From the NCBI GenBank assembly GCA_963768385.1, contig CAVYHQ010000002.1:255270-287269 (forward strand): a stretch of 32,000 nt of DNA. Reading direction: 5' to 3'. How positions within the stretch are numbered: the stretch's first letter is position 1; every line of letters starts with the position of its first letter. The notes beneath the pieces are model-generated. The model was not told the origin of the DNA. It made no database searches and saw only the letters and a list, made by a program, of their open reading frames with translations. Of this stretch, positions 9,583 to 29,115 are shown piece after piece. The DNA comes from Bryobacterales bacterium (GTDB lineage: Bacteria; Acidobacteriota; Terriglobia; Bryobacterales; Bryobacteraceae). The translations under genes were made by a program, and so were the position numbers.

Positions 9583-10035
9583 CTACTTGCGCGCGGTGAC
9601 GGCGATCTCGATGTGCGCTTTCGGCAACGCCAGCCGGGTCACGCCCACGGTGGCGCGCGAGGGCCGCGGGGTCTTGAAGTAGGTGGCGTAGACGGCGTTC
9701 ATGCGCGCGAACAGGTCCATATCCGTGAGATAAACCTGCACGGACACAACGTCCGCATAGGTCATGCCCGCGGCTTTAAGGACGATGCCGATGGTGTCCA
9801 GACAGGCCTTCACTTCGGCTTCGAAATCGGCGGGGACTTCGCGGGTTTTGAGATCGGCGCCGATCTGGCCGGAGACATAGAGTGTTCCATCCACCAGGAT
9901 GCCGGGGCTGTACATGGGCTCGGAGGCGGCCGGCGCGGGAGCGAATTCCGGCGGGGCGATGACTTTCCGTTGGGCCTGCAAGGGCACAGTGAGCAAGAGC
10001 GTGCCCAGAAGTAACGCGCAGAGATGGGTTCGCAT
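9583..10035 (-). CDS. RidA/YjgF/L-PSP family protein with an N-terminal signal peptide
   Basis: ATG 10035 gives MRTHLCALLLGTLLLTVPLQAQ (Sec-type signal). The RidA core follows: GILVDGTLYVSGQIG...FEAEVKACLDTIGIVLKAAGMTYADVVSVQVYLTDM..F..MNAVYATYF...PSRATVGV..L.....IEI. The longer track ORF (to 10323) runs into the upstream gene. Confidence 0.85.
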   Translation of the reverse strand: MRTHLCALLLGTLLLTVPLQAQRKVIAPPEFAPAPAASEPMYSPGILVDGTLYVSGQIGADLKTREVPADFEAEVKACLDTIGIVLKAAGMTYADVVSVQVYLTDMDLFARMNAVYATYFKTPRPSRATVGVTRLALPKAHIEIAVTARK

Positions 10036-10088
10036 GAAGGTCAATGTAGCACCGATCGTAATTCGGTGACAGGAAGCTGTGTCTTGAA

Positions 10089-11636
10089 TCAGAGTAGCAC
10101 CCCGTTGTCCGGGTTGCGGGTTTCGCCGGGGCTTGACACCAGGATTGCCGGCTGGCCTTTGATGACGCACTTGTTGGTGCAGATGCCGCATCCGATACAC
10201 AGTTCCAGGTTGACGCGCGGCTGCTTCACGGTGACCTTCCCGCCCCGGTCCATAGTTACCTGCGCTTCTTCGAACCAGATGGCCTTCTTGGGCGTGGGGC
10301 AATGCTCTTCGCAAACGATACACGTCCGCGCGGCGGCATACGGGAGACAGCGGTTGCGGTCGATGTACGCCAGGCCGATCTTGATCTTCTGCTTCTCTTC
10401 TACGCTGAGCGGCCGGATGGCGCCGGTGGGGCAGACCTCAGTGCACAGCGTGCACTCGTACTCGCAGTAGCCGATGGTCATCTTCATGACCGGCGTCCAC
10501 ATGCCCTCCAGCCCGCCTTCGAGCGCCGCCGGGTGAATGCCGTTGGTCGGGCACACCTTCATGCACTCACCGCAGCGGATGCACTTGGAGAGAAACTCCT
10601 CTTCGCCCAGCGCTCCCGGGGGACGCACCAGCTCGGGGTTGTAGGAGCGCTTGCCGGCCAGCGGATGCGTGCGGAACAGGAGCGCTCCGCCGGCGCCGGC
10701 GACGCCCGAGGCCAGCAACTGGCGGCGGCCGAGGTCCAGGCGCGAGTCCTTCGGCGGCTTCAGATAGCTGGTCCCCCAACTGAGAGTGACTGCCTGCGAG
10801 GGGCAATCGGACTGGCAGTTGAAGCAGTAGAAGCATTCCGCCGGCTTCCATTCGAGGGTGTTCCCCACGTTGGCGCCACCCTGGCAATCGGCCAGGCACA
10901 GACGGCAATTGTCGCAGGCTTCGGGGCTCTTGTTGAGCCGCACCAGCGGGTTCCTGCCGGCGATTCCGAGCAGCGCCCCGAGCGGACAAATGTACCGGCA
11001 CCAGAAGCGCGTCCGGTAGAAGTTGAGGGCGATAACCACTCCGAACAGCACCCCGATCAGGACGTTCCCGAAGTAATGCGGCTGCGCGACGGCGAGTAAC
11101 TGCCGGCGCAGTGAGTCGTAGAACAGGATCGAGTCAGCGGCGCTGTTGAGTGCCGGGTACACGGCCACCGCCATTCCCCGGAAGAAGAAAGAAAGCGGGT
11201 CAAGCCAGCCCACCACGTTGACGCCCAGCAGCGCGGCCGCCAGAAACACCACCAGCACGTAATACTTGGCCTTGTGCCAGCGGCCATAGCCGCCGGTATC
11301 GAGCCGGGCCTTGACCGGGCCGCCGCGCAGGCTGGAGAAGAGATGGTGCAGAGTGCCGAAGGGGCAGATCCATCCGCAGAACCAGCGGCCGAACAGGAAG
11401 GTGACGGCCAGCGTGGCGAGCGAGAGCAGCATGCCCGCGGCCAGCGCGTGCGACGCCAGCCAATCCGTCAGCATCACCAGCGGATCGATTTGGAAGAAGA
11501 ACTTGACTCCGCCGCCCACGCGGTTGATGGGGTGATACACGGTTTCCAGAAACAGGTAGAGGAACAGCAGCAGAAACGCGGTCTGGACGGCGCGGCGGAG
11601 CCACACCAGCGTGGTCGTTGGCGTTTTGCGAGCCAT
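10089..11636 (-). CDS. Membrane polyferredoxin; NapH/MauN-like N-terminal half fused to a NapG/MauM-like C-terminal half
   Basis: The N-terminal half is multi-TM with two CX3CP motifs (CGWICP, CRYICP) and two 4Fe-4S motifs (CDNCRLCLADC, CFYCFNCQSDCP), which is the NapH pattern. An RR-containing hydrophobic segment follows (LGRRQLLASGVAGAGGALLF). After it come LVRPPGALGEEEFLSKCIRCGECMKVCP and three more Cys clusters (CEYECTLCTEVCP, C-x8-CIVCEEHCP, CIGCGICTNKC), which is the NapG pattern. Confidence 0.85.
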   Translation of the reverse strand: MARKTPTTTLVWLRRAVQTAFLLLFLYLFLETVYHPINRVGGGVKFFFQIDPLVMLTDWLASHALAAGMLLSLATLAVTFLFGRWFCGWICPFGTLHHLFSSLRGGPVKARLDTGGYGRWHKAKYYVLVVFLAAALLGVNVVGWLDPLSFFFRGMAVAVYPALNSAADSILFYDSLRRQLLAVAQPHYFGNVLIGVLFGVVIALNFYRTRFWCRYICPLGALLGIAGRNPLVRLNKSPEACDNCRLCLADCQGGANVGNTLEWKPAECFYCFNCQSDCPSQAVTLSWGTSYLKPPKDSRLDLGRRQLLASGVAGAGGALLFRTHPLAGKRSYNPELVRPPGALGEEEFLSKCIRCGECMKVCPTNGIHPAALEGGLEGMWTPVMKMTIGYCEYECTLCTEVCPTGAIRPLSVEEKQKIKIGLAYIDRNRCLPYAAARTCIVCEEHCPTPKKAIWFEEAQVTMDRGGKVTVKQPRVNLELCIGCGICTNKCVIKGQPAILVSSPGETRNPDNGVLL

Positions 11637-12536
11637 CTAAACCTCCACCCGCGCCGGTGAGAGCGCCGCGTAATTCATGTTCCCGAGGCCGCGGGCGTGG
11701 CCTTCCACTATGTACCCAATGTCCGCTGGCCGGAGGCCCAGCAGCGTGGCGCCGAAGGCATCCACGGCCACCTGGTCCACGCCGGCCACGATGGTGTCGC
11801 GGCGTTTCACGTCGGCGAGATTGCCGCCCACCGGGCCGTTGGCCGCCAACACGCGCACGGCATCAAGCACCACCAGTTGCGGCCGGATGAAGCCGGCCAG
11901 GTCGGCGATGGTGTTGTTGATGTCCTGGTGGAAGCGGTTGCGCGCGCCGCCGGCGACGCCCATCAGGTTCTTCATTCCGAGGACGGCCAAGGTGAGGCTG
12001 TGGTGCTTGACAATCCCCACATTGATGACGCGGTCGGCCTCCACCACATCGCGATAGATTTCCCATTCCTTGAGGACATGAGCGCCCTGGATGGCCATCT
12101 TGCGGAACTTGCGTTCATCCATGAAATAGCACTGCGCGCCGGCCTTCTGGGCGGCGCTCTGGATGCCACTGCGCGGATAGGTGCTCTGCGGCGAGTTGCA
12201 GGGGTTGTCGCCGACCGCGACTTTTTTGGCGCCGGCCTGGAAGCACATCTCGACGAGCGCGGCGACCACGTCGGGGTTGGTGCAAGCCGCCTGTTCGGGG
12301 CGGCGGTCCCAGGCGATGTTGGGCTTCACCCAGACCACGTTGCCCTTGGAAACGAAACGGGCCATGCCGCCCAGCGCGTCAATGGCGCTGCGTGTCAGCC
12401 GCCGGGCCTCCTCCGCAATGCCATCGGGCTCGGCCGGAGAAGATTTGTAATGGGCAATGCTCAGCGACGGCGCGGTGGCGGGCAGAAGCGCGGGCGCAAG
12501 CGACAACAAAAACTGTCTCCGATCGATCTCCATCAC
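11637..12536 (-). CDS. DUF362-family protein with a twin-arginine (Tat) signal
   Basis: The N-terminus MMEIDRRQFLLSLAPALLPATAPSLSIA has an RRxFL motif followed by a hydrophobic region. The DUF362-like core includes VWVKPNIAW, CTNPDVVAALVEMCFQAGAKKVAVGDN and VKHHSLTLAVLGMKNLMG. The first codon at 12536 is GTG, with ATG at 12533. The stop abuts the polyferredoxin start with a 0-nt gap. Confidence 0.85.
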   Translation of the reverse strand: MMEIDRRQFLLSLAPALLPATAPSLSIAHYKSSPAEPDGIAEEARRLTRSAIDALGGMARFVSKGNVVWVKPNIAWDRRPEQAACTNPDVVAALVEMCFQAGAKKVAVGDNPCNSPQSTYPRSGIQSAAQKAGAQCYFMDERKFRKMAIQGAHVLKEWEIYRDVVEADRVINVGIVKHHSLTLAVLGMKNLMGVAGGARNRFHQDINNTIADLAGFIRPQLVVLDAVRVLAANGPVGGNLADVKRRDTIVAGVDQVAVDAFGATLLGLRPADIGYIVEGHARGLGNMNYAALSPARVEV

Positions 12537-13333
12537 GGCTTTACCTTGTCCAGAAAAGCGGCCGCGCCGGGCGGCGGATGAAGACAGAGTATGGCATAGT
12601 GGCCGCGTGCGAAGAAGATGACTTCACCGCCCGACCGAAGATAGTAGCGACGGAGTTGCTCTACTCTCTGGTTGGCGTCGCGGGCATCCGCGGCCAGCGA
12701 GATCACGAGAGAGGTTACCTGGCCATCGAAGCGGTAAGAGGCCGTCAGCGCAGGCGCCAGGAAGTCATGGCCGGCGGGAGCTTCGACCAGATATTTCTCC
12801 GACCGCGCCACGCGGTTCTCGCGGGGAAGAATGTCGAGCAGGGCCGGCAGCGAGCGATCCCCGCCGATATTCCGCGAGATCGCGCGCGCGAAGTTGTCGA
12901 GTGCCGGCCCAGCCCCGTCGCCGAAAGCCGAGAGCCGGACGTAATAGCGGCCCTGAAGAAAGTTGAGCGTCGATTCGCTGCTGTAACCCTCCGCCCCGAT
13001 GGAAATGAAATGATATTCGGGAGAGCGCTCCATCGAGTAAATGCCGAACGCTGCCAGCGGGCTGCCCATATCGAATACGTCCACCGTCATTTCGACGCCC
13101 GCAATCTTATACTCGCGGTGAACCATCGCCAGCAGCCCGTACTTGAGATAGATGTCGGCGCCGCCGTCCATGTACCGGTAGAGGTCGGACGAATAGAAGC
13201 GTGCTGGGTTCTTGCCATTGGGGAGCAACGCGGCGAGCCGCGTCTTCACTTCGGCCGGAATGGGAGCCTGTTGCGCGTAGAGTGCAGCCGCCAGAACGAG
13301 ATAGGCAATGGGTCTGCGCATGGTGTGCTCCAA
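12533..13333 (-). CDS. Hypothetical secreted protein, first gene of the DUF362/polyferredoxin operon
   Basis: It has a signal peptide (MRRPIAYLVLAAALYAQQ; starts at 13333 or 13321) and GC3-rich coding on the minus strand. The stop TGA (12533-12535) overlaps the GTG/ATG start of the DUF362 gene, indicating translational coupling. No family was assigned with confidence. Confidence 0.7.
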   Translation of the reverse strand: MEHTMRRPIAYLVLAAALYAQQAPIPAEVKTRLAALLPNGKNPARFYSSDLYRYMDGGADIYLKYGLLAMVHREYKIAGVEMTVDVFDMGSPLAAFGIYSMERSPEYHFISIGAEGYSSESTLNFLQGRYYVRLSAFGDGAGPALDNFARAISRNIGGDRSLPALLDILPRENRVARSEKYLVEAPAGHDFLAPALTASYRFDGQVTSLVISLAADARDANQRVEQLRRYYLRSGGEVIFFARGHYAILCLHPPPGAAAFLDKVKP

Positions 13334-13403: not shown

Positions 13404-14657
13404 ATGCTTACCCTTGAGAAGTTCTCGATTGGAGTGGGAGACCGCTTCGCGCATCAGGCCAGGGCGCAACTGACTGCTTGCGTTATGGCTGCCAAGTCCG
13501 GCGTCACCGTGATCCCGGTCTGGAACAAATCGAATCGCGAGCACTTGATCGTCGGTACCGAACCGGGCAGCGTGCGGGCCGCCGCCGATGCGGCCGTCCG
13601 TGAACTGGGCTGGAAACATCCGTACCACGTGGACGCCGATCACATCAACCTGGGCACGGTGGACCGCTTCATCGATGCGAGCGATTTCTACACGCTGGAC
13701 GTCGCCGCGGCTATCGGCCGGCCCGCAGCGGCCGCGGACGTGGAAGCGTTCGTGGGGCGGCATCCGGAGCTGATCGGGCGGTTGAACGTCCCCGGAATCG
13801 CCGAGCCATTCATCACCACGCGGCAGTCGGTGGGGGCGGTTGCGGGCAAGTATCTCTTTGCCGTCGAGGAAGCCGGGCGCATCTATCGCCACGTCGCGGA
13901 GCGCAAAGGCGCGGGCCATTTCGTGACGGAAGTTTCCATGGATGAGACCGACTCGCCGCAAACTCCTCCCGAGCTGCTTATCATTCTGGCGGCCATCGCC
14001 GATGAGAAGATCCCCATCCAGACCATTGCGCCGAAGTTCACGGGCCGCTTCAACAAGGGCGTGGACTACGTTGGCGACCTGGCGCAATTTACGAAGGAGT
14101 TCAACGACGACCTGGCGGTGATCGCGTACGCCACCAGGCAGTACCAGCTTCCGCGCAACCTCAAGCTGAGCGTGCATTCCGGCAGCGACAAATTTTCCAT
14201 CTACGCGCCCATGCGGCGGGCGCTGCGGAGATTCAACGCCGGCGTGCACCTCAAGACGGCGGGAACGACGTGGCTGGAGGAGCTGATCGGACTGGCGGAA
14301 GCCGGCGGAGACGGGCTCAAACTGGCCAAGGAGGTCTACACCGAGGCGTTCGCCCGTCGCGACGAGTTGTGCGAGCCGTACGCCGCGGTGATCGACATCC
14401 ACTACGAACGGTTGCCCTCGCCGGCGGAGGTCGAGGGTTGGAGCTCGGAGCAGTACACATCGGCGCTGCGCCACGATCAATCGAACCCGGGATTCAATCC
14501 GGACGTGCGGCAGTTGCTGCACGTGGGCTACAAGGTGGCCGCCAAGATGGGCGCCCGATATCTGAACATGCTGGAGCAGTGCGAGGAGCCGATATCCCGC
14601 AACGTCACCCAGAACCTGTTCGAGCGGCACATCCGGCCGCTGTTCCTGGAGAAATAG
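13404..14657 (+). CDS. UxaE-like tagaturonate/fructuronate epimerase family protein (TIM barrel)
   Basis: The motifs match what I recall of Thermotoga UxaE: FSIGVGDRF near the N-terminus, HVDADH, VSMDETDSPQTP, VDYVGDLAQF, LSVHSGSDKFSIY, HLKTAGTTWLEE. The substrate is not inferable from sequence. Confidence 0.7.
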   Translation: MLTLEKFSIGVGDRFAHQARAQLTACVMAAKSGVTVIPVWNKSNREHLIVGTEPGSVRAAADAAVRELGWKHPYHVDADHINLGTVDRFIDASDFYTLDVAAAIGRPAAAADVEAFVGRHPELIGRLNVPGIAEPFITTRQSVGAVAGKYLFAVEEAGRIYRHVAERKGAGHFVTEVSMDETDSPQTPPELLIILAAIADEKIPIQTIAPKFTGRFNKGVDYVGDLAQFTKEFNDDLAVIAYATRQYQLPRNLKLSVHSGSDKFSIYAPMRRALRRFNAGVHLKTAGTTWLEELIGLAEAGGDGLKLAKEVYTEAFARRDELCEPYAAVIDIHYERLPSPAEVEGWSSEQYTSALRHDQSNPGFNPDVRQLLHVGYKVAAKMGARYLNMLEQCEEPISRNVTQNLFERHIRPLFLEK

Positions 14658-19832: not shown

Positions 19833-21623
19833 CTAGGGTTGTGCTGGTGCCGGAGCTTGGCGCCCGCACAGATATGCGGAGATATCCGCAACGAATTCCG
19901 AGGCTTCCCGAAACACCTCTGGTGATTCGCCGATTTTAGGGATGGCCTTGGCGATCCAATCAGGCTTGTTTGTCGGACCTTCACGCCACCAACACTCAAG
20001 CACGCCGGCCGGCACCAAGAATAGGCCAACTTCTCGGCACTTCATCAAGAGTTCCTTTCCGGCGGTCAACTCCGCACCCGTTAGCCTGCTGATGCCGTAT
20101 CGTTTCACCTCACTCCAGTCTGTAGCCGAATCTAATAGCTCCTGGAGTTCCTTGCGGTCTCCAGACGTAATCCTGCCTGCCATCTCGACTCGATCCAAAA
20201 CTGACCGGGCACTCTCGGCAAACTCAGAGGCCAGCACGAGAGGCTTCCGGTCATTTAAGGCCGAGGAGGTTCTCTTGTATAGTATTTCGATCTTTGACGG
20301 ATCGCCTCTAAGGGTACCGTACAGTTTCAAGAATTCTTCCCGCCGCCTAAGGAGGTCCAGATCCGCAATTACAGCAGTTGGAACGTCGAGAGCCTTGTAT
20401 GTCTCCGCAAGGGTAGCGATGGCCCCCTTACCGCCGCCATGCACGAAATACAGATCCAAAGGAAGTGACGATTCCTTCTCGGTGCGCAAGGCGAGTGCCT
20501 CATAAAAGCGGCAATCGGAGTCTGCTTCGCACACCACCACGCCGGAATGAAAGAGTCCAGTGATCGCCATGGACGAGCGAAGGAGGGGTTTCGCCCATAG
20601 ATCCTGTAATTCAGATTTTCCGAGGGCGGAGACGCGATTTCTATTCCCGTCCCGTGTCATCCGACACACGATGACGTTCGGGGAAGCATCCATCGCACCT
20701 TGGATGATGTCGCTACTGTGTGTTGCAAGGATTATTTGACGGCTGCCGGTTGTTGCGCTTTCTGCAAGGATGCTTCCCAACCGGCGGGCCTGGGGGGGAT
20801 GCAGAAAAGCCTCAGGTTCATCGATGAGCATCACCGGATGGGTGCCAACTTCTGCGGCGAGCACACTTCCTACGAAGCTTCGAATACCGTCGCCCTCGTT
20901 GTCCAGCCGCGGCTGCAACTCCAGAGCCTTCAAGTATTGCACGGATACGCGATCAGCATCACGCTGTCTAGGCGGTTCCTCTCCAACGTGAAACCACACT
21001 TGTTGCCCTCCGCCAAAGTTTATGAGTAACCGGCGATTGAAGGCGGACCGCACGAGGGCGGAAACCCGTTCAGCTAGAACCTCGTCCCGCTGGAGGAAGT
21101 GAATATACGCGGTTGGATTGGTGGTATACGGAGCTGATTGTGTTGCCGAGGCGATGGATAACCGTGATTGGGTATCAAGACGCAGCATCAGAACGTGGCT
21201 CATCCCGGCCACGCTTTGAGCAGTAAGTGTGAAACCTGGCTGCTCTGGTCCAATGCCTGTTCCAGGGTGACCGCCCGCACCATGCGGGAGGGGTGCAGTT
21301 TGGAAGAATTCAATACCTGGAGCTTGCTTGAATGCTGGGTATCGGAGGCGTAACCACTCTGCAAGCTGGTGCGGGGTTCCGGTGCATTGAAACGCAACGT
21401 CGGTGACCACATAGAACGGAAGTTGTGGATTCGGGCCGAACGGGCCCAGCCGTTGCAGATGTTGCTGGATTTCCCGGAGAGTAATACTCTTGCCGCTATT
21501 GTTCGGCCCCGTAATTATCAGCGTCGTTCCCGGTGCGGGGGAAAGAACCAATCCATCGTTAAACGTCAGCTTTTCAATACCAAATGTGAATTCCGAGGCC
21601 GGTGATGCGAAGGAGATGCCCAT
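19833..21623 (-). CDS. ABC-type ATPase fused to a TOPRIM/DUF4435-like nuclease domain (OLD-family or single-chain PARIS-like defence nuclease)
   Basis: ATPase motifs are Walker A ITGPNNSGKS, signature-like EGDGIRSF, Walker B VMLIDEPEAFLHPPQARRL and H-loop LATHSSD. The C-terminal half has VVVCEADSDCRFYEAL (TOPRIM Glu), HGGGKG and VIADLDLL (DxD). G+C is visibly lower than the flanks. Confidence 0.75.
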   Translation of the reverse strand: MGISFASPASEFTFGIEKLTFNDGLVLSPAPGTTLIITGPNNSGKSITLREIQQHLQRLGPFGPNPQLPFYVVTDVAFQCTGTPHQLAEWLRLRYPAFKQAPGIEFFQTAPLPHGAGGHPGTGIGPEQPGFTLTAQSVAGMSHVLMLRLDTQSRLSIASATQSAPYTTNPTAYIHFLQRDEVLAERVSALVRSAFNRRLLINFGGGQQVWFHVGEEPPRQRDADRVSVQYLKALELQPRLDNEGDGIRSFVGSVLAAEVGTHPVMLIDEPEAFLHPPQARRLGSILAESATTGSRQIILATHSSDIIQGAMDASPNVIVCRMTRDGNRNRVSALGKSELQDLWAKPLLRSSMAITGLFHSGVVVCEADSDCRFYEALALRTEKESSLPLDLYFVHGGGKGAIATLAETYKALDVPTAVIADLDLLRRREEFLKLYGTLRGDPSKIEILYKRTSSALNDRKPLVLASEFAESARSVLDRVEMAGRITSGDRKELQELLDSATDWSEVKRYGISRLTGAELTAGKELLMKCREVGLFLVPAGVLECWWREGPTNKPDWIAKAIPKIGESPEVFREASEFVADISAYLCGRQAPAPAQP

Positions 21624-21747
21624 TCACCGCTATAGTAGCCGATTGGCCTCCTTTGCGGCGGAAACCGCCCAGAGTCCATCGCCAAGGGAAACCGGGAGGG
21701 ATTGCGGCCAGAAAGGCCGCAAAAACACGTTTCCTTTGCTTCGAGTC

Positions 21748-21824
<77 letters not shown>

Positions 21825-23369: not shown

Positions 23370-25541
23370 GTGAGAGACAGAGTCGGAGTTCGGCCGGTTC
23401 TAGTCCTGATCGGCTTCACCGCGGCCATTGCTCAGATCGTGCTCATGCGCGAGCTGATGGTGGTCTTCTGCGGCAACGAGATTTCGCTCGGGCTGATGCT
23501 GGGGAGCTGGCTGTTTTGGACCGCCGCGGGCAGCGCGTGGGCGGGCCGTCTCGGAGAACCCCGACGCCTGATGGCCGGTCTGGAGGCGCTGGTGGCCTTG
23601 GCGCTGCCGGCGACCATCCTGGCGGTGCGCGCCAGCAAGGCGGTGCTCGAAGCGGTTCCGGGAGAAAGCCTGGGGCCGGGGCCAATGCTGCTTGGGTCGC
23701 TGGCGACGCTGAGCCTGTTCTGTGTCCTGTCAGGCGCTCTGTTCGCCGCTGGCAGCAGGCTGTACGGGGATGACGTGGCCACCTCCACGGGTTCGGTGTA
23801 CCTGCTGGAGGCGCTGGGGTCCGCCGCCGGAGGCATGCTGGCGGGCCTGGTGCTGGTACGATACGTCGCCCCGCTCGAGATTGCATTGGGACTGGGGCTG
23901 CTCAATCTTCTGGCTGCGGCGGGCCTGGTAATCCGCGCGCGGTTGGCTCGCGGCGCGGCGATGGGCGCACTCGCCGGCATGGCGGTGTTGCTGGCGCTTC
24001 CTTTCGGTTTCCCGAGGCTGGAAACAATTTCCCTGGAGCGCTTCTGGCGCGGCTTCCACCTGGTGACGACGCGCAACTCGGTCTATGGCAACCTGGCGGT
24101 GGTCCGGACGGAAGGCGCCAGCAGTCTTTACGAGAACGGTCTGAACCTTTTTAACGTGCCCGACCCGGCCGCGGCGGAGGAGGCGGTGCATTACGCTCTG
24201 CTCGAGCAGCCTTCGCCTCGAAGCCTTCTGCTGATCGGCGGAGGCGTCAACGGGAGCCTGGCCGAAGCGCTCAAGCACGGCAGCCTGGAGCGGATCGACT
24301 ACGTCGAACTGGACCCAGCAATTCTGGACCTGTTCCCCATACAGAAGGACCCGCGAGTGCGCGTACACGTGACCGACGGGCGCCTGTTCTTGAAGACCAC
24401 GGCATCCACCTTCGACGTCATCATCGTGAATCTGCCGGATCCGCAGACCGCGCAGTTGAACCGGTTCTACACGCTGGAATTCTTCCGCGAGGCGGCGAGA
24501 AAGCTCACCGCGAGCGGCATCCTGGCGCTGCGGCTGACGGGGGCGGAGGATTACATCAGCCCGGAACTGGCGGCATTTCTGCGCTCCATCTACAAGACCC
24601 TGCGCGCGGTATTTCCCGAGGTCACGGCGATTCCCGGCGAGACCGTTCACTTCTTCGGCGCCAAGCGAACGGGAGTCCTGGCGGCTGGCCCCGAGGAGTT
24701 GCTAGCGCGGCTGCGGGCGCGGCGGCTCGAAACCAGCTACGTGCGGGAGTATTACATTCCCTTTCGCATGATGCCGGATCGCATGGCCGGCCTCGAACGG
24801 CAGATCGAGCCGCGGCCGGAGACGCCCGTGAACCGCGACTTTGCGCCGGTGGCCTACTACTTCGACGTGGCGCTGTGGAGCAGCCGCTTCAACCACGGTT
24901 ACCGCGACCTTTTCCGCGCCATGGCGGGCGTCAGCTTTAGCTGGCTGGCGGGAGCGGTGGGCGTGGTTCTGCTGGTGCTGGTGGCCAAGAAGCGGCGGGC
25001 CCGGACGGCGGCCGCGTGCTGCACCGCCGCCATGGGATTCACTTTGATCGGCCTGGAGATGCTGCTCCTGCTGGCGTTCCAGGCGATCTACGGCTACGTC
25101 TACCAGCAGCTTGCCGTCATCATTGCCGCTTTCATGGCCGGCATGGCGCTGGGGAGTTGGCTGGCTCTTGCACGGGGCAGGTCGGGGACCTGCCCCACAA
25201 TGCGCACCCTGGTGCTTCTGCAAATTGGCGCGGCCATCGCGCCACTGCTGCTGTGCGCGGTCTTTCAAGCTGTCACCCAATGGCTGTTTCCCGTGTTGGC
25301 GCTCGGCTGCGGGATGCTGGGCGGATTCGAGTTTCCGGTTGCCAGCCGGATCTTTGGCGGGCGCAATCCGGGAACACTGTACGCGCTCGACCTGGCGGGC
25401 TCCTGCCTGGGCGCGGTGCTGTTCAGCGTCTACTTGATCCCGGTGTTCGGCTTTCTCAAAACGGCCGTTCTGGCTGCGATGGTGAGCTTGGCCCCGGCAG
25501 TGATGGCGGTTCGTTCGGTGTCGGAAAGACCAGCGCGGTGA
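23370..25541 (+). CDS. Fused MFS-like membrane domain / spermidine synthase-like protein (paralog 2)
   Basis: GTG 23370 lies 2 nt after the upstream stop; the track start at 23067 lies inside the preceding gene. N-terminal TM helices are followed by a SpeE-like core (LLLIGGGVNGSLAEAL...IDYVELDP...VTDGRLFL...FDVIIVNLPDPQTAQLNRFYTLEFF), then about 6 more C-terminal TM helices. Confidence 0.8.
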   Translation: MRDRVGVRPVLVLIGFTAAIAQIVLMRELMVVFCGNEISLGLMLGSWLFWTAAGSAWAGRLGEPRRLMAGLEALVALALPATILAVRASKAVLEAVPGESLGPGPMLLGSLATLSLFCVLSGALFAAGSRLYGDDVATSTGSVYLLEALGSAAGGMLAGLVLVRYVAPLEIALGLGLLNLLAAAGLVIRARLARGAAMGALAGMAVLLALPFGFPRLETISLERFWRGFHLVTTRNSVYGNLAVVRTEGASSLYENGLNLFNVPDPAAAEEAVHYALLEQPSPRSLLLIGGGVNGSLAEALKHGSLERIDYVELDPAILDLFPIQKDPRVRVHVTDGRLFLKTTASTFDVIIVNLPDPQTAQLNRFYTLEFFREAARKLTASGILALRLTGAEDYISPELAAFLRSIYKTLRAVFPEVTAIPGETVHFFGAKRTGVLAAGPEELLARLRARRLETSYVREYYIPFRMMPDRMAGLERQIEPRPETPVNRDFAPVAYYFDVALWSSRFNHGYRDLFRAMAGVSFSWLAGAVGVVLLVLVAKKRRARTAAACCTAAMGFTLIGLEMLLLLAFQAIYGYVYQQLAVIIAAFMAGMALGSWLALARGRSGTCPTMRTLVLLQIGAAIAPLLLCAVFQAVTQWLFPVLALGCGMLGGFEFPVASRIFGGRNPGTLYALDLAGSCLGAVLFSVYLIPVFGFLKTAVLAAMVSLAPAVMAVRSVSERPAR

Positions 25542-27018
25542 AGCGGAAGATGTCGGTGTCGGCGTCCTGCCAGCAATTCTTGGGCAAACCGGCCTTGTAA
25601 CAGGTCTCATCGAGAAAAGTGGTGCGGTCCCACTTTTCTTCTACCGGGACCTGGGGGAGCAGCAACCCCTCGATGTCGCCCTTCTTCATGATCAGGCCAT
25701 GCTGTCCCACGCGGATCTCCTTGACGTCCAGCACCCGGCGGAGCGGTGAAAGGACCGAGATTTCATACTCCAGCGCGCCCAGTTCGCGGGCGGAGACCGG
25801 CTGGAAGCGGGTGTCCCTCAAGGCAGCGAACATGGCCACGTCGCGAACGGTAATGGAGAGAGGCTTGACGGGAGCTACGTAGCCGATGCAGCCGCGCAGT
25901 TGGCCGTTCTCCTTAAGGGTGACGAAGGCGCCGCGCTCTTGCTCCAGAGCCTCGAACGCCACCGGTGAATATTCGTACTGTTTGTGATCTCTGACGGCGG
26001 TTTCCACGGACTTGCGTGCGATCTTGAGCAACTCATCTTTCTCCCGCTGGCTGAGGGAGAAGGGCGGCTCGCTCGAGCCGGCACGCGCCGGGGCTTTCAC
26101 AAAGGCCACGGCGCCGTAGCCCACCACGCGGGACTTGTCGCCGGCGGTATCGCCGGAGTTCGCATACTTCAGGACCTTGGCCTGCGAGGCTCCCAGCCGC
26201 TCGGAAGCGATCATGGCGGCTATGATCGGATATCCGCCGCAGGCCTCCCAGACGTTGACTCTCGGGTCGAAGTTGCGCGCCATGCTGAGGTAGTCCCACT
26301 CCTCGATGGCCTTCAAGGTCTTGTGGTCTATCTTCACGGCCTCGTCATAGGGATGGTAGTGCGAGAGGTCGGAACTGGCGACGATCAAGGTGTTGGTGCC
26401 CTGGATCAGCTTGGCGAGCGCCAGCCCCAGCGCGCGGCAGGTTTCATAGCTCTGGTCTCCTATGACGATGGGCACAAGCTGAAACTGGCCGAGCACGCGC
26501 TGGAGGAAAGGGAGCTGATCTTCCAAAGCGTGTTCCGGCTTGTCGGGCGTAGGGGTGTGTCCGGCCCCGGAAAGCTTGATGAGCTTGCTCATGGTGGCCA
26601 GCTTGGCGGCGAACGCCCGGTCCACGGGGACCTGGCCCAGCGGCGTGGTGTAAGCAGCGCCGTCGTACACCGACGCGTAACCGAAAGCTTCGTAATGCGA
26701 CGGCGCGATGACCACCACCCGGTCGAACTTGCGGCCTTTGAGCAAGGCATAGGAGTAGGCGGCCACTTGCCCGGCGTACTCATAGCCGGCGTGCGGTGCG
26801 ACCAGCGCCACGACATCGGTTAGTGGCGGAGGCGCGGCCTTCGCCAGGAAACCGTCCACCATTTTCGCAAGTTCGTTGGGGTCGGCCGGATAGAACGATC
26901 CGGCGACCGCGGCCGGCCGCACCTTGGCGGACTCGGCGGAGCTGGCGCCCCTGGGCCGCAGCAGAACAAACCCGGCCACCAGGACGAGTGCGATGACAAA
27001 CACAGTTACGATTCTCAT
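25456..27018 (-). CDS. amrB-amrA: AmmeMemoRadiSam system protein B (Memo-like) fused to protein A (AMMECR1), with an N-terminal signal/anchor
   Basis: ATG 27018 overlaps the amrS stop as ATGA. The leader is MRIVTVFVIALVLVAGFVLLRPRGASSAES. Memo motifs are GSFYP, APHAGYEYAG, SSDLSHYH and ACGGYPI. After a linker come the AMMECR1 motifs GAFVTL, LRGCIGY and GLLLPQVP. Confidence 0.9.
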   Translation of the reverse strand: MRIVTVFVIALVLVAGFVLLRPRGASSAESAKVRPAAVAGSFYPADPNELAKMVDGFLAKAAPPPLTDVVALVAPHAGYEYAGQVAAYSYALLKGRKFDRVVVIAPSHYEAFGYASVYDGAAYTTPLGQVPVDRAFAAKLATMSKLIKLSGAGHTPTPDKPEHALEDQLPFLQRVLGQFQLVPIVIGDQSYETCRALGLALAKLIQGTNTLIVASSDLSHYHPYDEAVKIDHKTLKAIEEWDYLSMARNFDPRVNVWEACGGYPIIAAMIASERLGASQAKVLKYANSGDTAGDKSRVVGYGAVAFVKAPARAGSSEPPFSLSQREKDELLKIARKSVETAVRDHKQYEYSPVAFEALEQERGAFVTLKENGQLRGCIGYVAPVKPLSITVRDVAMFAALRDTRFQPVSARELGALEYEISVLSPLRRVLDVKEIRVGQHGLIMKKGDIEGLLLPQVPVEEKWDRTTFLDETCYKAGLPKNCWQDADTDIFRFTALVFPTPNEPPSLPGPSSPSQPERPF

Positions 27019-28139
27019 AAGTGAAGTAATCCGTCCCAAACTCCCGGGATGGCTTGCTGGCAGAACTGGCACTTGCCCCGGTTGAGGTGAATGGCCCTCA
27101 CCGCGAAGCCGGCGCGCTCCACCACCATGCGACGGCACTTGGGGCAGTAGGTGCTCTCGGCCGGATGGCCGGGAATGTTGCCGATGTAAACGTAGTGAAG
27201 GCCTTCGGCGTCGCAAATGGCTTTGGCGCGCTCGAGGGTCGGCACGGGCGTGATCGGAAGGTTCTTCAGGAGATACTCCGGATGGAATTGCGAGAAGTGC
27301 AGCGGGACGTCCGGGCCTAACTCGGTTTTCACCCAGCGGGCGAGCGATTTGAACTCCTGGTCGGAGTCATTCAGGGTGGGGATTACCAGGTAGACGATCT
27401 CGTTCCAGGTGCCCTGCTTGCGAATGGCGACCAGGGTGTTGAGCACGGGCTTCAACTCGCCGTTGACCACTTCTTTGTAGAACTTCTCGGAAAAGGCTTT
27501 GAGGTCGATCTTGATGGCGTCTACGCGGCGGCACAACTGCTTCAGCGGCTCTTCCTGAATGTAGCCTCCGCTGACCACTGCGCTCTTCACGCCGGCTGCG
27601 CGGCCGGCTTCCGCGGTATCCAGGACATACTCGCAAAACACCACCGGTTCGCTGTAGGTATAAGCGATGGAAGGGCAGTTATACCGCTGGGCCACGGCGG
27701 GCACGCTTTGAGGAGGAAGATAGGTGTTCTCGACCTGTTCGGGCCGGGACTGGGAGATCTCCCAATTCTGGCACATTTTGCAATTGACGTTGCAGCCTGC
27801 GGTGGCGATGGAGAACGCCATGGTGCCGGGGATGAAATGGAAGAAGGGTTTCTTTTCGATAGGGTCAACGTGGGCGGAACAGACGCGGGAGTAGACGAGC
27901 GAGTAGTAAGTGCCGCCGCGGTTTTCGCGCACGCCGCAGTAGCCGCGCTCGTGGTCGTCGATGACACATTCGCGCGGGCAAAGCTTGCACTTGATCTTCT
28001 TATAGGGCAGTTTCTCGTAGAACCGCGCTTCGATGGTGAACTGCGCGTCGTTGGCCGCGGGCTTGGCCGGCGCGCCTTCGGCGGCGCACACCGCCAGGCA
28101 GGGCAGGGTAGCGGTCTTGAGAAATGCCCGGCGGTCCAT
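27015..28139 (-). CDS. amrS: AmmeMemoRadiSam system radical SAM enzyme with a twin-arginine signal
   Basis: ATG 28139 lies 4 nt after the DUF362 stop. The leader is MDRRAFLKTATLPCLAVCAAEGAPAKPAA. It has an N-terminal Cys cluster (CKLCPRECV...YCGVR), the radical SAM motif CNVNCKMC (CX3CX2C) and a C-terminal CPKC...CQFC ribbon. Confidence 0.9.
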   Translation of the reverse strand: MDRRAFLKTATLPCLAVCAAEGAPAKPAANDAQFTIEARFYEKLPYKKIKCKLCPRECVIDDHERGYCGVRENRGGTYYSLVYSRVCSAHVDPIEKKPFFHFIPGTMAFSIATAGCNVNCKMCQNWEISQSRPEQVENTYLPPQSVPAVAQRYNCPSIAYTYSEPVVFCEYVLDTAEAGRAAGVKSAVVSGGYIQEEPLKQLCRRVDAIKIDLKAFSEKFYKEVVNGELKPVLNTLVAIRKQGTWNEIVYLVIPTLNDSDQEFKSLARWVKTELGPDVPLHFSQFHPEYLLKNLPITPVPTLERAKAICDAEGLHYVYIGNIPGHPAESTYCPKCRRMVVERAGFAVRAIHLNRGKCQFCQQAIPGVWDGLLHL

Positions 28140-28143
28140 AGCT

Positions 28144-29115
28144 TTAGATCTCCACTCTTTCGATGAGGCTGGGGTCGTTGGTTCCGAGCCGGTGCTGCGG
28201 ATCGGCGGCCCTGGCGATGTAGGCCGGTTCCCGCTTGACATCCCGCAACGGCTGGATGCCCTTCTCGGCCCGTTTTTGTTCGATGATGCGCCACCCCGTG
28301 TAATCCAGCGCCACCGGGTCGCGGGAAACGATTACGCCGTTGAATGGCCAGGACCATTGCGGCATATAAGAAGGTCCGCCTTCGTACTGGGGCGCGATGG
28401 CGTCGCAGATAGTCAGCCTCACCTTCTGGCGGATGGGCGGCAGCATGTTGACGTCGGCGACGTACGGATCGCCGGCGGTGAGGTGGTACTTGTTGGGGTT
28501 GTGGATGGCGCCGAACAGGTTCTTGAGGGCCATGGTCACCCCCACAATGCCATGGTCTTTGAGGACCGGCAGGTTGACGACGGCGTCGCAGGTTCGCGTC
28601 AGGGTGGTGGAGAGGAGACTCCCCACGCTGCCGTAGATGGCCAGGTCGGTTTCGTATCCGGAGGCATCGTTGCCGATCGAGCGGATGCGATCTTTGCGAG
28701 AGGCCACCTGGAACCCGGCGCTTTCGAGGTCGGAGTTGAGGCGGTCCCAGATTACGATGTTTTTGGGCGGAATTCCCGCTTGCTGGAGCCGCTCGCAGAC
28801 GGCTTCGACGAGCACTGTATTGGTGGAAGCGCCGCGACCGGCCAGGCAGTTGACTTTCAAGCCGACCACCTCAGTGGGCCGTGCGATTCGCTTCCAGGCC
28901 TCGATGGGCGAATCGGCGTCATAGATGGACTGGACGGCGCGGTCAAGCACTTTCAGGAGACGGCTGGAATCGAGGGAGGCGCCCGATGGCCGCAACAACG
29001 GGTCGCGGGAGATGACGACTTTCGATTTGCCTGGGACGGCGGCGGGGGCGGGGAGCGCGCCGGCAAGGCACGCGCGCAGGAGATTTCGGCGACTGGTGCC
29101 CGGGTTTCGGTCCAT
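28144..29115 (-). CDS. DUF362-family protein with a twin-arginine signal (paralog of 11637-12536)
   Basis: ATG 29115 gives MDRNPGTSRRNLLRACLAGALPAPAAV. The DUF362-like core includes VVGLKVNCLAG, NTVLVEAVCERLQQAGI and VLKDHGIVGVTMALKNLFG, parallel to the first paralog. Confidence 0.85.
   Translation of the reverse strand: MDRNPGTSRRNLLRACLAGALPAPAAVPGKSKVVISRDPLLRPSGASLDSSRLLKVLDRAVQSIYDADSPIEAWKRIARPTEVVGLKVNCLAGRGASTNTVLVEAVCERLQQAGIPPKNIVIWDRLNSDLESAGFQVASRKDRIRSIGNDASGYETDLAIYGSVGSLLSTTLTRTCDAVVNLPVLKDHGIVGVTMALKNLFGAIHNPNKYHLTAGDPYVADVNMLPPIRQKVRLTICDAIAPQYEGGPSYMPQWSWPFNGVIVSRDPVALDYTGWRIIEQKRAEKGIQPLRDVKREPAYIARAADPQHRLGTNDPSLIERVEI

Follow-up and report, generated by a model that had tools for sequence, protein, structure and literature searches.

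A conserved DUF362-polyferredoxin gene pair, joined by a secreted DUF6599 protein, as a proposed periplasmic redox module in a Bryobacterales bacterium

Within a 32,000-nucleotide stretch of a Bryobacterales genome (contig CAVYHQ010000002.1; hereafter the window), positions 9583-13333 hold four co-directional minus-strand open reading frames (ORFs) encoding a DUF6599 protein, a Tat-signal DUF362 protein, a polytopic polyferredoxin, and a RidA protein (Table 1). At the junction of genes 1 and 2 (GTGATGG), the stop codon of gene 1 (TGA) shares bases with either candidate start codon of gene 2 (GTG or ATG). Gene 3 begins with an ATG immediately after the gene 2 stop codon TAG (0-nt gap), and 53 nt (10036-10088) separate genes 3 and 4. 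We thereby verified the four ORFs at the positions given by the earlier note and the coupling junctions that it described. Because the genes on either side, one UxaE-like (13404-14657, +) and one of the ROK family with its end at 9552 (+), lie on the opposite strand, the co-directional unit comprises exactly four genes. The divergent UxaE-like neighbor (cluster c11) is kept only in a Bryobacteraceae-like clade. No sigma-70 consensus was found in the region between this gene and the DUF6599 gene, and promoter and terminator scans of the block yielded nothing exceeding shuffled background; these scans therefore neither back nor exclude a single transcript.

Table 1. Features of the four-gene block (positions in the window)
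Feature	Position	Strand	Basis
Gene 1, DUF6599 (PF20244)	12533..13321, ORF up to TTG 13333	(-)	Pfam E 1.2e-39
Gene 2, Tat-signal DUF362 (PF04015)	11637..12536	(-)	Pfam E 4.3e-49
Gene 3, NapH::NapG-type polytopic polyferredoxin, 515 aa	10089..11636	(-)	Pfam Fer4_5 and other Fer4 domains
Gene 4, RidA/Endoribonuclease L-PSP, Sec signal peptide, 150 aa	9583..10035	(-)	Pfam E 2e-31
Divergent intergenic region, DUF6599/UxaE-like gene, 70 nt	13334..13403		Gene positions; presumed promoter region of block
DUF362 Tat signal peptide, aa 1-27, MEIDRRQFLLSLAPALLPATAPSLSIA	12453..12533	(-)	Sequence; RRxhh motif kept in family
Internal twin-arginine motif and low-hydrophobicity fifth TM helix, aa 300-326, LDLGRRQLLASGVAGAGGALLFRTHPL	10659..10739	(-)	Motif/hydropathy

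Gene 1, previously regarded as a secreted unknown, belongs to a defined family, DUF6599. Its start is likely ATG 13321 rather than the TTG 13333 called by the ORF finder, because the 262-aa product from this ATG is 100% identical to a database protein of that length (P0121). The DUF362 protein has 298 aa if read from ATG 12533 and 299 aa if read from GTG 12536. The export signals proposed earlier for the products of genes 1, 2, and 4 are present as Sec, Tat, and Sec signals, respectively: a Sec-type signal peptide in DUF6599 (MRRPIAYLVLAAALYA, followed by QQ, with predicted cleavage after LYA), a Tat signal in DUF362 (MEIDRRQFLLSLAPALLPATAPSLSIA, followed by HY), and a Sec signal in RidA (MRTHLCALLLGTLLLTVPLQA, followed by QRK). 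An RRxhh motif occurs in the N terminus of 117 of the 134 full-length DUF362 representatives, and several close DUF362 homologues match PF10518 (TAT_signal). We also observed an internal Tat motif in the polyferredoxin (LGRRQLLASGVAGAGGALLF, aa 302-325), which lies between its NapH and NapG halves and was absent from the earlier note.

Motif and hydropathy analysis of the polyferredoxin predicted four Sec-type transmembrane (TM) helices with two CX3CP motifs, two cytoplasmic and four periplasmic [4Fe-4S] motifs of the CxxCxxCxxxC type, and an internal RRQLL motif followed by a weak fifth helix, not called as TM even at KD 1.2, and then by positive charges (GKR). The internal RR motif is kept in 22/22 fused homologues, and where NapG is a separate gene it forms the N-terminal Tat signal. 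NapH::NapG fusions are not new, and judging from its sequence, gene 3 is best placed in the class of polytopic polyferredoxins described by Tooke et al. (2017), for which dual Sec/Tat insertion was shown experimentally (PMC5449189). Like Q1NSB0 of the delta proteobacterium MLMS-1 from that work, the gene 3 product joins NapH and NapG in one protein and has five predicted TM helices, and it shares with the Q1NSB0 class an RR motif directly before a weakly hydrophobic fifth helix, positive charges thereafter, and a four-cluster C-terminal domain outside. By analogy, dual Sec/Tat insertion is predicted for the gene 3 protein itself. That study, however, addressed biogenesis only, assigned no partner or function, and did not describe linkage to DUF362 or DUF6599.

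The NapGH quinol dehydrogenases of E. coli and Wolinella, with their MauM/MauN, NosR, and NapH relatives, offer a second comparison. Both have a NapH half made up of four TM helices, a pair of CX3CP motifs, and two [4Fe-4S] motifs facing the cytoplasm, and a NapG half in which a twin-arginine motif precedes four [4Fe-4S] motifs; in both, a membrane Fe-S module serves, or here would serve, a Tat-exported periplasmic enzyme. In contrast to NapGH, the two halves are fused here, and DUF362 takes the place of a molybdo-, copper-, or TTQ-enzyme as the partner; we found no napA, napB, napC, mau, or nos genes near the module among the window ORFs. Since the NCBIfam scores of the polyferredoxin are far under the cut-offs (NapG, 107.8 versus 269; NapH, 73.7 versus 213), it can be likened to a quinol dehydrogenase only by analogy.

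We analyzed conservation of the block in a genome census of 80 DUF6599-anchored loci and in a DUF362-centred census of 10 independently sampled lineages with 38-69% identity. DUF362 was directly beside a same-strand NapH/G-type gene in 48/80 genome loci, 36 of them in the order DUF6599-DUF362-NapH(G) and 12 in the order NapHG-DUF362-DUF6599. At roughly half of the loci, the gap from DUF362 to NapH did not exceed 6 nt, and the polyferredoxins at DUF6599-anchored loci were fused in 22 cases and split in 24. In the DUF362-centred census, a NapH/G-type polyferredoxin gene adjoined DUF362 or followed closely downstream of it in 7 of the 10 lineages. These include Acidobacteriota, Syntrophobacteraceae, and four other loci, sediment metagenome contigs among them, and the Syntrophobacteraceae locus (L086) has the same DUF6599-DUF362-NapHG order as the window. 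The DUF362-NapH/G adjacency is thus conserved well beyond close relatives, and its occurrence in 48 loci and seven lineages supports the earlier proposal that DUF362 may act in the periplasm as partner of a NapGH-type electron module. Of the two neighbors that the earlier note suggested might co-occur with Tat-DUF362 genes, the NapH/NapG-like protein did so and RidA did not, as detailed below.

DUF362, the polyferredoxin, and DUF6599 constitute a module of genes that is conserved across bacterial phyla, in which DUF6599 often accompanies the other two. DUF6599 adjoined either DUF362 or an AKR-FeS (aldo-keto-reductase/[4Fe-4S]) gene in 38/40 informative metagenome loci and an AKR, a Tat-signal protein with [4Fe-4S] motifs, in 69/80 genome loci; no gene cluster besides AKR-FeS recurred in more than 15 of these 80 loci. 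The DUF362-polyferredoxin module is optional, with the polyferredoxin missing in 3/10 DUF362 lineages and a second DUF362 type accompanied by other redox proteins (radical SAM, Fer4, and CCG proteins) that are typically cytoplasmic.

Following a suggestion in the earlier note, we compared the predicted DUF362 model (moderate confidence, pLDDT 74) with known structures by Foldseek. Members of the LarA superfamily of nickel-pincer nucleotide enzymes, named for the nickel-dependent lactate racemase LarA (PDB 5HUQ, 7S91, and 9Q3J for the superfamily), were the sole strong matches, comprising LarA, Mar2, and LarA homologues (E 5e-7 to 1e-4, probability 1.0, TM about 0.5). The structure would permit a redox-type role, because DUF362 folds like these hydride-transfer enzymes. 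Genuine LarA proteins in turn scored 25.8-26.1 bits (E 1e-5) against the Pfam DUF362 model, exceeding its gathering threshold of 24 bits, and both families belong to Pfam clan CL0471 (PMC11770544). DUF362 nevertheless differs from LarA in its mature length (about 270 versus about 420 aa), in having no Pfam match to LarA_C, the LarA C-terminal domain, and in a Lar_N score of 11.9 against a threshold of 23.3. It also lacks the second catalytic His, with no His at the LarA His108 position and Asp109 as the likely equivalent.

Across 134 diverse representatives, the near-invariant DUF362 residues were K70, P71, N72, D109, K176, H178, K188, R198, H202, and D224. In 97 DUF362 sequences of 36-52% identity, K176, H178, and K188 were invariant and H202 was at least 90% conserved, and K188 and H202 were each kept in 133 of 135 aligned sequences. 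Both hhalign and the Pfam Lar_N model placed DUF362 residues 157-190 on LarA residues 153-186, pairing H178 with H174 and K188 with K184 in an EAD...H(x9)K motif common to both, at a low significance (hhalign E 0.2-0.4; Lar_N E 0.13) that does not suffice alone; pairing H202 with H200 requires a 2-residue indel placed by eye. In this register, H178 would correspond to the catalytic His174 of LarA, K188 to Lys184, which tethers the cofactor, and H202 to the nickel ligand His200 or a position near it. DUF362 is likely the catalytic subunit of the module and, by analogy with LarA, a testable candidate for an exported nickel-pincer enzyme. We recognized no larB, larC, larE, or nickel transporter among the annotated window ORFs.

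For DUF6599, an AF2 model (pLDDT 90) gave weak fold matches (TM about 0.3) to the extracytoplasmic ligand-binding proteins TP0453, TiME, and PknH sensor, so that the corresponding search suggested for gene 1 returned ligand-binding proteins but no enzymes. DUF6599 most likely has no catalytic role and acts in the periplasm as a partner that binds substrate or aids docking. We found no experimental study of any DUF362 or DUF6599 member in the literature.

In one alternative, which follows the earlier note, all four genes including RidA form one pathway, in which DUF362 would oxidize a periplasmic amine or amino acid and secreted RidA would quench the released enamine or imine. RidA (TIGR00004 score, 102.2; cut-off, 106.25) is co-directional with and close downstream of gene 3, no terminator-like site lies between them, and its genuine signal peptide is kept in orthologues of about 90% identity, which occur 1.9-4.3 kb downstream of the module in three same-clade relatives (L006, L010, and L011). 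However, these are the only 3 of the 80 genome loci with RidA within 8 kb, always two or three genes off and never directly adjacent, and in L010 three opposite-strand genes part it from the module. RidA was not found in the other 77 genome loci, including the close relatives L005 and L007 (85-88% identity), or in any of the 10 DUF362-centred loci. In addition, the closest structural relatives of DUF362 use 2-hydroxy acids, not amines (PMC11770544). RidA is thus a lineage-specific neighbor and no conserved member of the module, the imine, amine, or amino-acid oxidation that its presence had hinted at finds no comparative support, and we consider a four-gene pathway highly improbable.

An accessory or maturation role for DUF362, as a cofactor carrier or electron-transfer adaptor, with catalysis by DUF6599 or by an unlinked periplasmic enzyme fed by the polyferredoxin, deserves somewhat more weight but appears unlikely. 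NapGH- and NosR-type modules typically feed separate catalytic enzymes, DUF6599 is common to two alternative redox neighbors (DUF362 and the Tat-signal AKR), and several of its polar residues are conserved among Acidobacteriota. Against this, adding a member of 22% identity breaks the invariance of those polar residues and leaves mostly aromatic or structural ones, and the DUF6599 fold matches are not to enzymes. Furthermore, 4 of the 7 DUF362-polyferredoxin pairs sampled from other lineages have no DUF6599 nearby, and DUF362 itself keeps invariant Lys and His residues in a pattern characteristic of active sites. We give hardly any credence to a functional but cytoplasmic-side module, or an assembly or regulatory device, whose export signals are mispredicted or mere membrane anchors. 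Elsewhere, numerous DUF362 proteins are joined to ferredoxin domains and lack export signals, as Pfam notes cited in PMC5742341 state and a DUF362+Fer4 gene at L174 exemplifies, and the second DUF362 type keeps typically cytoplasmic company. Yet the RR motif is present in the 117 DUF362 subfamily members noted above, the NapG-like half is always behind an RR motif that drives Tat export in a tested homologue (PMC5449189), and DUF6599 and RidA carry classical Sec signals.

Considering these alternatives, we moderately favor a model where the Tat-exported DUF362 protein and the NapH/NapG-type polyferredoxin are the conserved core of a periplasmic redox module, joined here by secreted DUF6599. 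Sec would insert the four helices of the polyferredoxin with the two cytoplasm-side [4Fe-4S] clusters, and Tat, acting on the internal RR motif and the weak fifth helix, would then carry the NapG-like domain, folded and with its four clusters, into the periplasm. DUF362 would be loaded with its cofactor in the cytoplasm, exported folded by Tat, and docked on the iron-sulfur wire. Such a design resembles MsrPQ (YedYZ)-type pairs, in which a Sec-inserted membrane redox protein is coupled to a Tat-exported cofactor enzyme; fused and split forms of both MsrPQ and polyferredoxin systems are found in different lineages (PMC5449189). The cofactors and folds are unrelated: MsrPQ has heme b and Moco, where the present system has a LarA-like protein and [4Fe-4S] clusters.

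In the favored model, a periplasmic substrate at DUF362 would exchange electrons with the membrane quinone pool or with the cytoplasmic side. Because of the LarA fold and the His...Lys...His triad in the LarA register, DUF362 probably uses a bound pyridinium-type cofactor, which may be the nickel-pincer nucleotide, to take a hydride from a C-H/C-OH substrate or to give one to it. The predicted Tat export of DUF362 and its coupling to Fe-S proteins, which distinguish it from LarA, suggest net electron transfer rather than redox-neutral racemization, and the Fe-S chain would re-oxidize or re-reduce the bound cofactor.

Positions 9583 to 13333 of the window hold four co-directional minus-strand ORFs, encoding proteins of the DUF6599, DUF362, NapH::NapG polyferredoxin, and RidA families (genes 1 to 4, respectively), which confirms the gene order described in the earlier note. 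The junctions were also as described there, with a TGA/ATG (GTG) overlap between genes 1 and 2, a 0-nt gap between genes 2 and 3, and a 53-nt gap before gene 4. Because the 262-aa product of gene 1 translated from the ATG at 13321 is identical to database protein P0121, this ATG is the likely start. Family assignments of genes 1 and 2 were well above threshold, at 136.2 bits (threshold, 27) for PF20244 and 167.7 bits (threshold, 24) for PF04015, with the latter match spanning profile positions 1 to 199 of 200. The block is flanked on both sides by opposite-strand genes. The window is GC rich (~0.56 to 0.71 in 1-kb windows), and the MAGs most closely related to it carry the labels Bryobacteraceae or Bryobacterales (phylum Acidobacteriota). 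Promoter and terminator scans of the window gave nothing above background, and an Rfam search of the window detected one tRNA alone and no riboswitch. Our literature search found no functional study of DUF362, PF04015, DUF6599, or Npun_F2552.

Features of the window and of homologous loci (L-numbers) discussed in the text
Feature	Coordinates	Strand	Assignment or remark
Gene 1, DUF6599	12533-13321/13333	minus	PF20244, E 1.2e-39
Gene 2, DUF362	11637-12536	minus	PF04015, E 4.3e-49
Gene 3, polyferredoxin, 515 aa	10089-11636	minus	Fer4_5 and Fer4 domains
Gene 4, RidA family with Sec signal peptide	9583-10035	minus	E 2e-31
UxaE-like gene	13404-14657		
Fused MFS/spermidine-synthase-like membrane protein, 808 aa	14659-17085	plus	NF037959
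OLD-family AAA/TOPRIM nuclease	19833-21623	minus	
tRNA adjoining the nuclease gene	21751-21824	minus	
Fused MFS/spermidine-synthase-like gene, 824 aa	23067-25541	plus	NF037959
Memo+AMMECR1 fusion	25456-27216	minus	
AmmeMemoRadiSam radical SAM enzyme	27015-28139	minus	TIGR04337, E 1.7e-114
Second DUF362 paralogue, 323 aa	28144-29115	minus	Tat-like SRRNLLRA
Radical SAM enzyme, L099	3695-4828	minus	outside the window
AKR-FeS example, L074	8919-10106		outside the window; loci range L005-L171
AKR-FeS example, L036	8797-10014		outside the window; loci range L005-L171

The central idea of the earlier note, that DUF362 works with a NapGH-type module, was supported and generalised by our census of homologous loci, while its extension to RidA and amine chemistry was not. 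An alignment scan with DUF6599, restricted to one genome per species, identified 519 relatives. The best 80 of these 519 loci, nearly all from Terriglobia, were fetched, and the four families were mapped in them by HMM and phmmer searches together with a trained gene caller. Within these best 80 of 519 loci, DUF362 was present in 52; the order DUF6599>DUF362>NapH(G) occurred in 36 loci and NapHG>DUF362>DUF6599 in 12, the polyferredoxin was fused in 22 and split in 24, and the gap from DUF362 to NapH was at most 6 nt in about half. We also assembled a DUF362-centred sample of 10 lineages whose DUF362 proteins are 38 to 69% identical to that of the window. In 7 of these 10 lineages, a NapH/G-type polyferredoxin gene adjoined DUF362 or lay a short way downstream, showing that the link holds beyond close relatives and withstands the refutation criterion of the earlier note, and one of the seven (L086, Syntrophobacteraceae) had the full DUF6599-DUF362-NapHG order including a 4-nt overlap. 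DUF6599 was found in 2 of the 10. Bacteria with the DUF362-polyferredoxin coupling came from peat, fen, and sediment. A metagenome scan with P0532, a Spirochaetota-like DUF362 protein, found nothing.

Some loci carried unexpected taxonomic labels. Among L009, L076, and L083, loci with the DUF6599 module lie in MAGs labelled Verrucomicrobiota or Verrucomicrobiia, and a DUF6599+AKR locus lies in a "Candidatus Binatia" MAG. Since the DUF6599 protein of L009 is 88% identical to that of the window, mis-binning is likely there, and the labels of these MAG contigs should be treated with care.

RidA had been proposed as a fourth member of the module, a proposal that the census did not bear out. As to the family assignment itself, gene 4 scored 108.9 bits for PF01042 (threshold, 27.3) and fell just under the TIGR00004 cut-off (102.2 against 106.25). 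RidA occurred within 8 kb of the module in just 3 of the best 80 of 519 loci (L006, L010, and L011) and in none of the 10 DUF362-centred lineages. These three orthologues are ~90% identical with the same signal peptide and lie 1.9 to 4.3 kb downstream with two to three genes between; the three intervening genes of L010 are on the opposite strand. RidA was absent from L005 and L007, which are closer relatives. Direct adjacency in the window is thus local in nature, the simplest explanation being that intervening genes were lost, and under the criterion of the earlier note (conservation beyond close relatives) the RidA link fails. With the RidA link falls the hint at imine-releasing amine oxidation, which removes a misleading lead.

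Motif and hydropathy analyses upheld gene 3 as a NapH::NapG fusion, although not as a novel one, since it is a polytopic polyferredoxin (PFD) of the class already described by Tooke et al. 2017 (PMC5449189). In that work, the class was defined as a NapH::NapG fusion with a weakly hydrophobic fifth helix after an internal twin-arginine motif, and the MLMS-1 homologue required both the RR motif and Tat to export a reporter (PMC5449189). Gene 3 shows the same combination of an even number of Sec-type helices (four TM helices by hydropathy analysis), an RR motif, a weak helix, and positive charges. Its internal Tat motif is LGRRQLLASGVAGAGGALLF, then R and GKR; the RRQLL occupies aa 304 to 308, and the segment from 306 to 325 was unflagged as TM at KD 1.2. 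Motif analysis placed Cys-rich cluster motifs on either face of the membrane, four of them outside: two CX3CP motifs (aa 87 and 213) and two CxxCxxCxxxC motifs (aa 241 and 268) precede the RR motif, and four further cluster motifs follow it at aa 352, 391, 430, and 480. By analogy with the described class, an established dual Sec/Tat insertion would place the four-cluster domain in the periplasm. All 22 fused homologues retained the internal RR motif, and in relatives with a split NapG gene the same motif, LDLGRRAVLAAG, stands at the start of the protein and forms its N-terminal Tat signal. Because the same RR motif is kept in both, we regard the fused and split polyferredoxins as two versions of one unit.

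The N-terminal half of gene 3 resembles NapH and the C-terminal half NapG, both far below the NCBIfam cut-offs for NapH/MauN (TIGR02163, 73.7 against 213.05; NF007013, 63.6 against 234) and NapG/MauM (TIGR00397, 80.3 against 178.85; NF007012, 107.8 against 269). No napA/napB, mauA/mauB, or nos genes were found among the annotated window genes. As judged by scores and gene content, gene 3 would be similar to NapGH in its working, yet it is not itself a Nap component.

DUF362 is a large family, comprising 6381 clusters at 50% identity (E 1e-3 or better), 401 of which are close to the window protein. The window protein carries a Tat signal consisting of a DRRQFLL motif, the h-region SLAPALLPATAPSL, and the cleavage-site residues SIA. 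An N-terminal RR motif was present in 117 of 134 full-length representatives (38 to 60% identity), and DUF362 homologues carry PF10518 matches. With residues numbered from the ATG at 12533, K70, P71, N72, P87, K176, H178, K188, G192, R198, H202, D224, and P234 were 96 to 100% conserved in the 134 representatives. DUF362 has no Fe-S motif. A sequence search for a solved DUF362 structure gave none up to E 10, and the AF2 model that we obtained had a pLDDT of 74 and a pTM of 0.78.

The structure search suggested in the earlier note revealed that DUF362 has the fold of the LarA (nickel-dependent lactate racemase) family of nickel-pincer enzymes. The top 18 Foldseek PDB matches of the model were all LarA, Mar2, or LarA homologues and were the only strong matches (E 5e-7 to 1.3e-4, probability 1.0, TM 0.43 to 0.55). 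DUF362 and LarA belong to one Pfam clan (PMC11770544), and genuine LarA proteins scored 25.8 to 26.1 bits on the DUF362 model, above the gathering threshold of 24. The fold, the shared clan, and this cross-hit above threshold together support homology to LarA. Direct comparisons in the other direction differed from LarA, with DUF362 scoring 11.9 bits for Lar_N (PF09861) against 23.3 (E 0.13) and showing no match to LarA_C (PF21113). Our own HMM against LarA sequences, and hhalign against LarA1 (the sequence identical to PDB 5HUQ) or a LarA profile, were likewise non-significant; we used these alignments for register alone, alongside the significant Pfam cross-hit.

DUF362 residues 157 to 190 fell on LarA residues 153 to 186 in each of three hhalign runs and with the Lar_N profile, in non-significant alignments (E 0.13 to 0.4). 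In that non-significant register, the common anchors are E-A-D, I, H, G, and K, and H178 and K188 would correspond to catalytic H174 and to K184, the cofactor tether, of LarA (alignments E 0.13 to 0.4). H202 is offset by two residues from the Ni ligand H200, and matching them needs a two-residue indel placed by eye. In an alignment of 97 sequences (A3), K188 showed no variation and H202 had a conservation of at least 90%, and each was present in 133 of 135 sequences of a larger alignment. Unlike LarA, DUF362 lacks a second catalytic His, as the region at LarA H108 reads VGDNPC, where D109 is conserved and His is absent; some LarA homologues have only one catalytic His (PMC12611868). These residue equivalences are a well-motivated lead from sequence comparison rather than a result. 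No larB, larC, or larE was recognised in the annotated window ORFs or recurred in the loci (flanks of up to 10 kb), and a literature search found no link between DUF362 and the nickel-pincer cofactor.

The gene 1 product, previously noted as a secreted protein of no known family, belongs to DUF6599. Its AF2 model was confident (pLDDT 90), and its only resemblances, all weak (TM ~0.3), were to extracytoplasmic ligand-binding proteins (TP0453, TiME, and the PknH sensor). A sequence search for a solved structure up to E 1 gave one chance-level match (E 0.95), and invariant residues across distant members were mostly aromatic or structural. An aldo-keto reductase with C-terminal [4Fe-4S] motifs (AKR-FeS), often with the Tat motif WNRREFI, adjoined DUF6599 in 69 of the best 80 of 519 genome loci, and neighbour clustering placed it there irrespective of the presence of the DUF362 module. 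We considered and rejected an AKR-FeS gene in the window, as none is there. A metagenome scan was anchored on a Syntrophobacteraceae DUF6599 protein 22% identical to that of the window; among 40 loci with room on both sides, DUF362 was adjacent in 24, AKR-FeS in 14, and neither in 2. We infer that DUF6599 has no catalytic role and acts in the periplasm as a partner of redox enzymes of the hydride-transfer type. A periplasmic AKR would be without an NAD(P)H supply. A 2026 paper described NPMN-dependent AKRs (PMC13524815). If DUF362 were a nickel-pincer enzyme, the AKR-[4Fe-4S] proteins with Tat signals that take its place or occur with it beside DUF6599 could hence be a parallel case.

An apparent DUF6599-DUF362 fusion, P0188 from an 8434-bp ENA contig, was rejected as Rosetta-stone evidence. 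Its sequence reads through the overlapping stop and start codons and is frameshifted at the C-terminus, and an error of assembly or gene calling is its more likely origin.

A second DUF362 paralogue, 24% identical to the first and keeping the same K/H/K/H residues, heads a minus-strand cluster at 25456-29115 with the radical SAM and Memo+AMMECR1 genes, convergent with the 824-aa MFS/spermidine-synthase-like gene. An orthologous set (DUF362, radical SAM, spermidine-synthase-like, Fer4, and CCG) lies divergent beside DUF6599 in ~20 sediment metagenome loci, such as L099. The 808-aa gene and the UxaE-like gene are syntenic with the DUF6599 operon in a Bryobacteraceae-like clade (L005, L006, and L011). 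The radical SAM enzymes of the window and L099 have twin-arginine-like N-termini (MDRRAFLKTATLPCLAVCAA and MKRRQFFKGVAGAGLLAS, respectively), located ~40 residues ahead of the family model start as read from predicted start codons. For a radical SAM enzyme, a signal of the Tat type would be unusual. Elsewhere in the window, 19833-21824 has a lower GC content (0.556 to 0.59, compared with a window average of ~0.63) and, with its nuclease and tRNA genes, may represent a small defence or mobile island that has become integrated there.

Our observations are consistent with a model in which Tat-exported DUF362 would bind the four-cluster domain of the polyferredoxin and exchange electrons with it, so that the module would connect a periplasmic substrate to the quinone pool in one direction or the other. 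In this model, DUF362 would carry a hydride-transfer cofactor of the pyridinium type, with the nickel-pincer nucleotide as one possibility, and this would explain its use of Tat despite having no Fe-S motif. Circumstantial hints point to a carbohydrate or hydroxy-acid substrate: UxaE-like and ROK genes flank the block, PfkB and SIS genes adjoin DUF362 in other loci, and DUF362-CBM9-dockerin proteins occur in cellulolytic consortia (PMC5742341). We consider it rather unlikely that DUF362 is a large unrecognised nickel-pincer (NPN/NPMN) branch, represented here by a Tat-exported holo-enzyme wired via the NapH/G polyferredoxin to the membrane. If true, the "hidden" hydride-transfer step of LarA would have turned into the net reaction of a periplasmic dehydrogenase or reductase of respiratory type. 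It would be the first member of the nickel-pincer group with a link to an iron-sulfur electron-transport chain, and also the first located beyond the cytoplasm.

As a composite, the system is uncharacterised; each of its parts falls in a known or named family, with the fusion protein in a described class. For DUF362, a very large family of unassigned function, these findings provide a concrete context, that of a periplasmic protein with the LarA fold that is exported by Tat and linked genetically to a membrane Fe-S wire. If confirmed, the module would be a new periplasmic quinone-linked oxidoreductase and would give polytopic polyferredoxins, which until now have figured only as a model of Sec/Tat biogenesis, a physiological partner. 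It might also carry nickel-pincer biochemistry beyond racemases, to enzymes coupled to electron transport.
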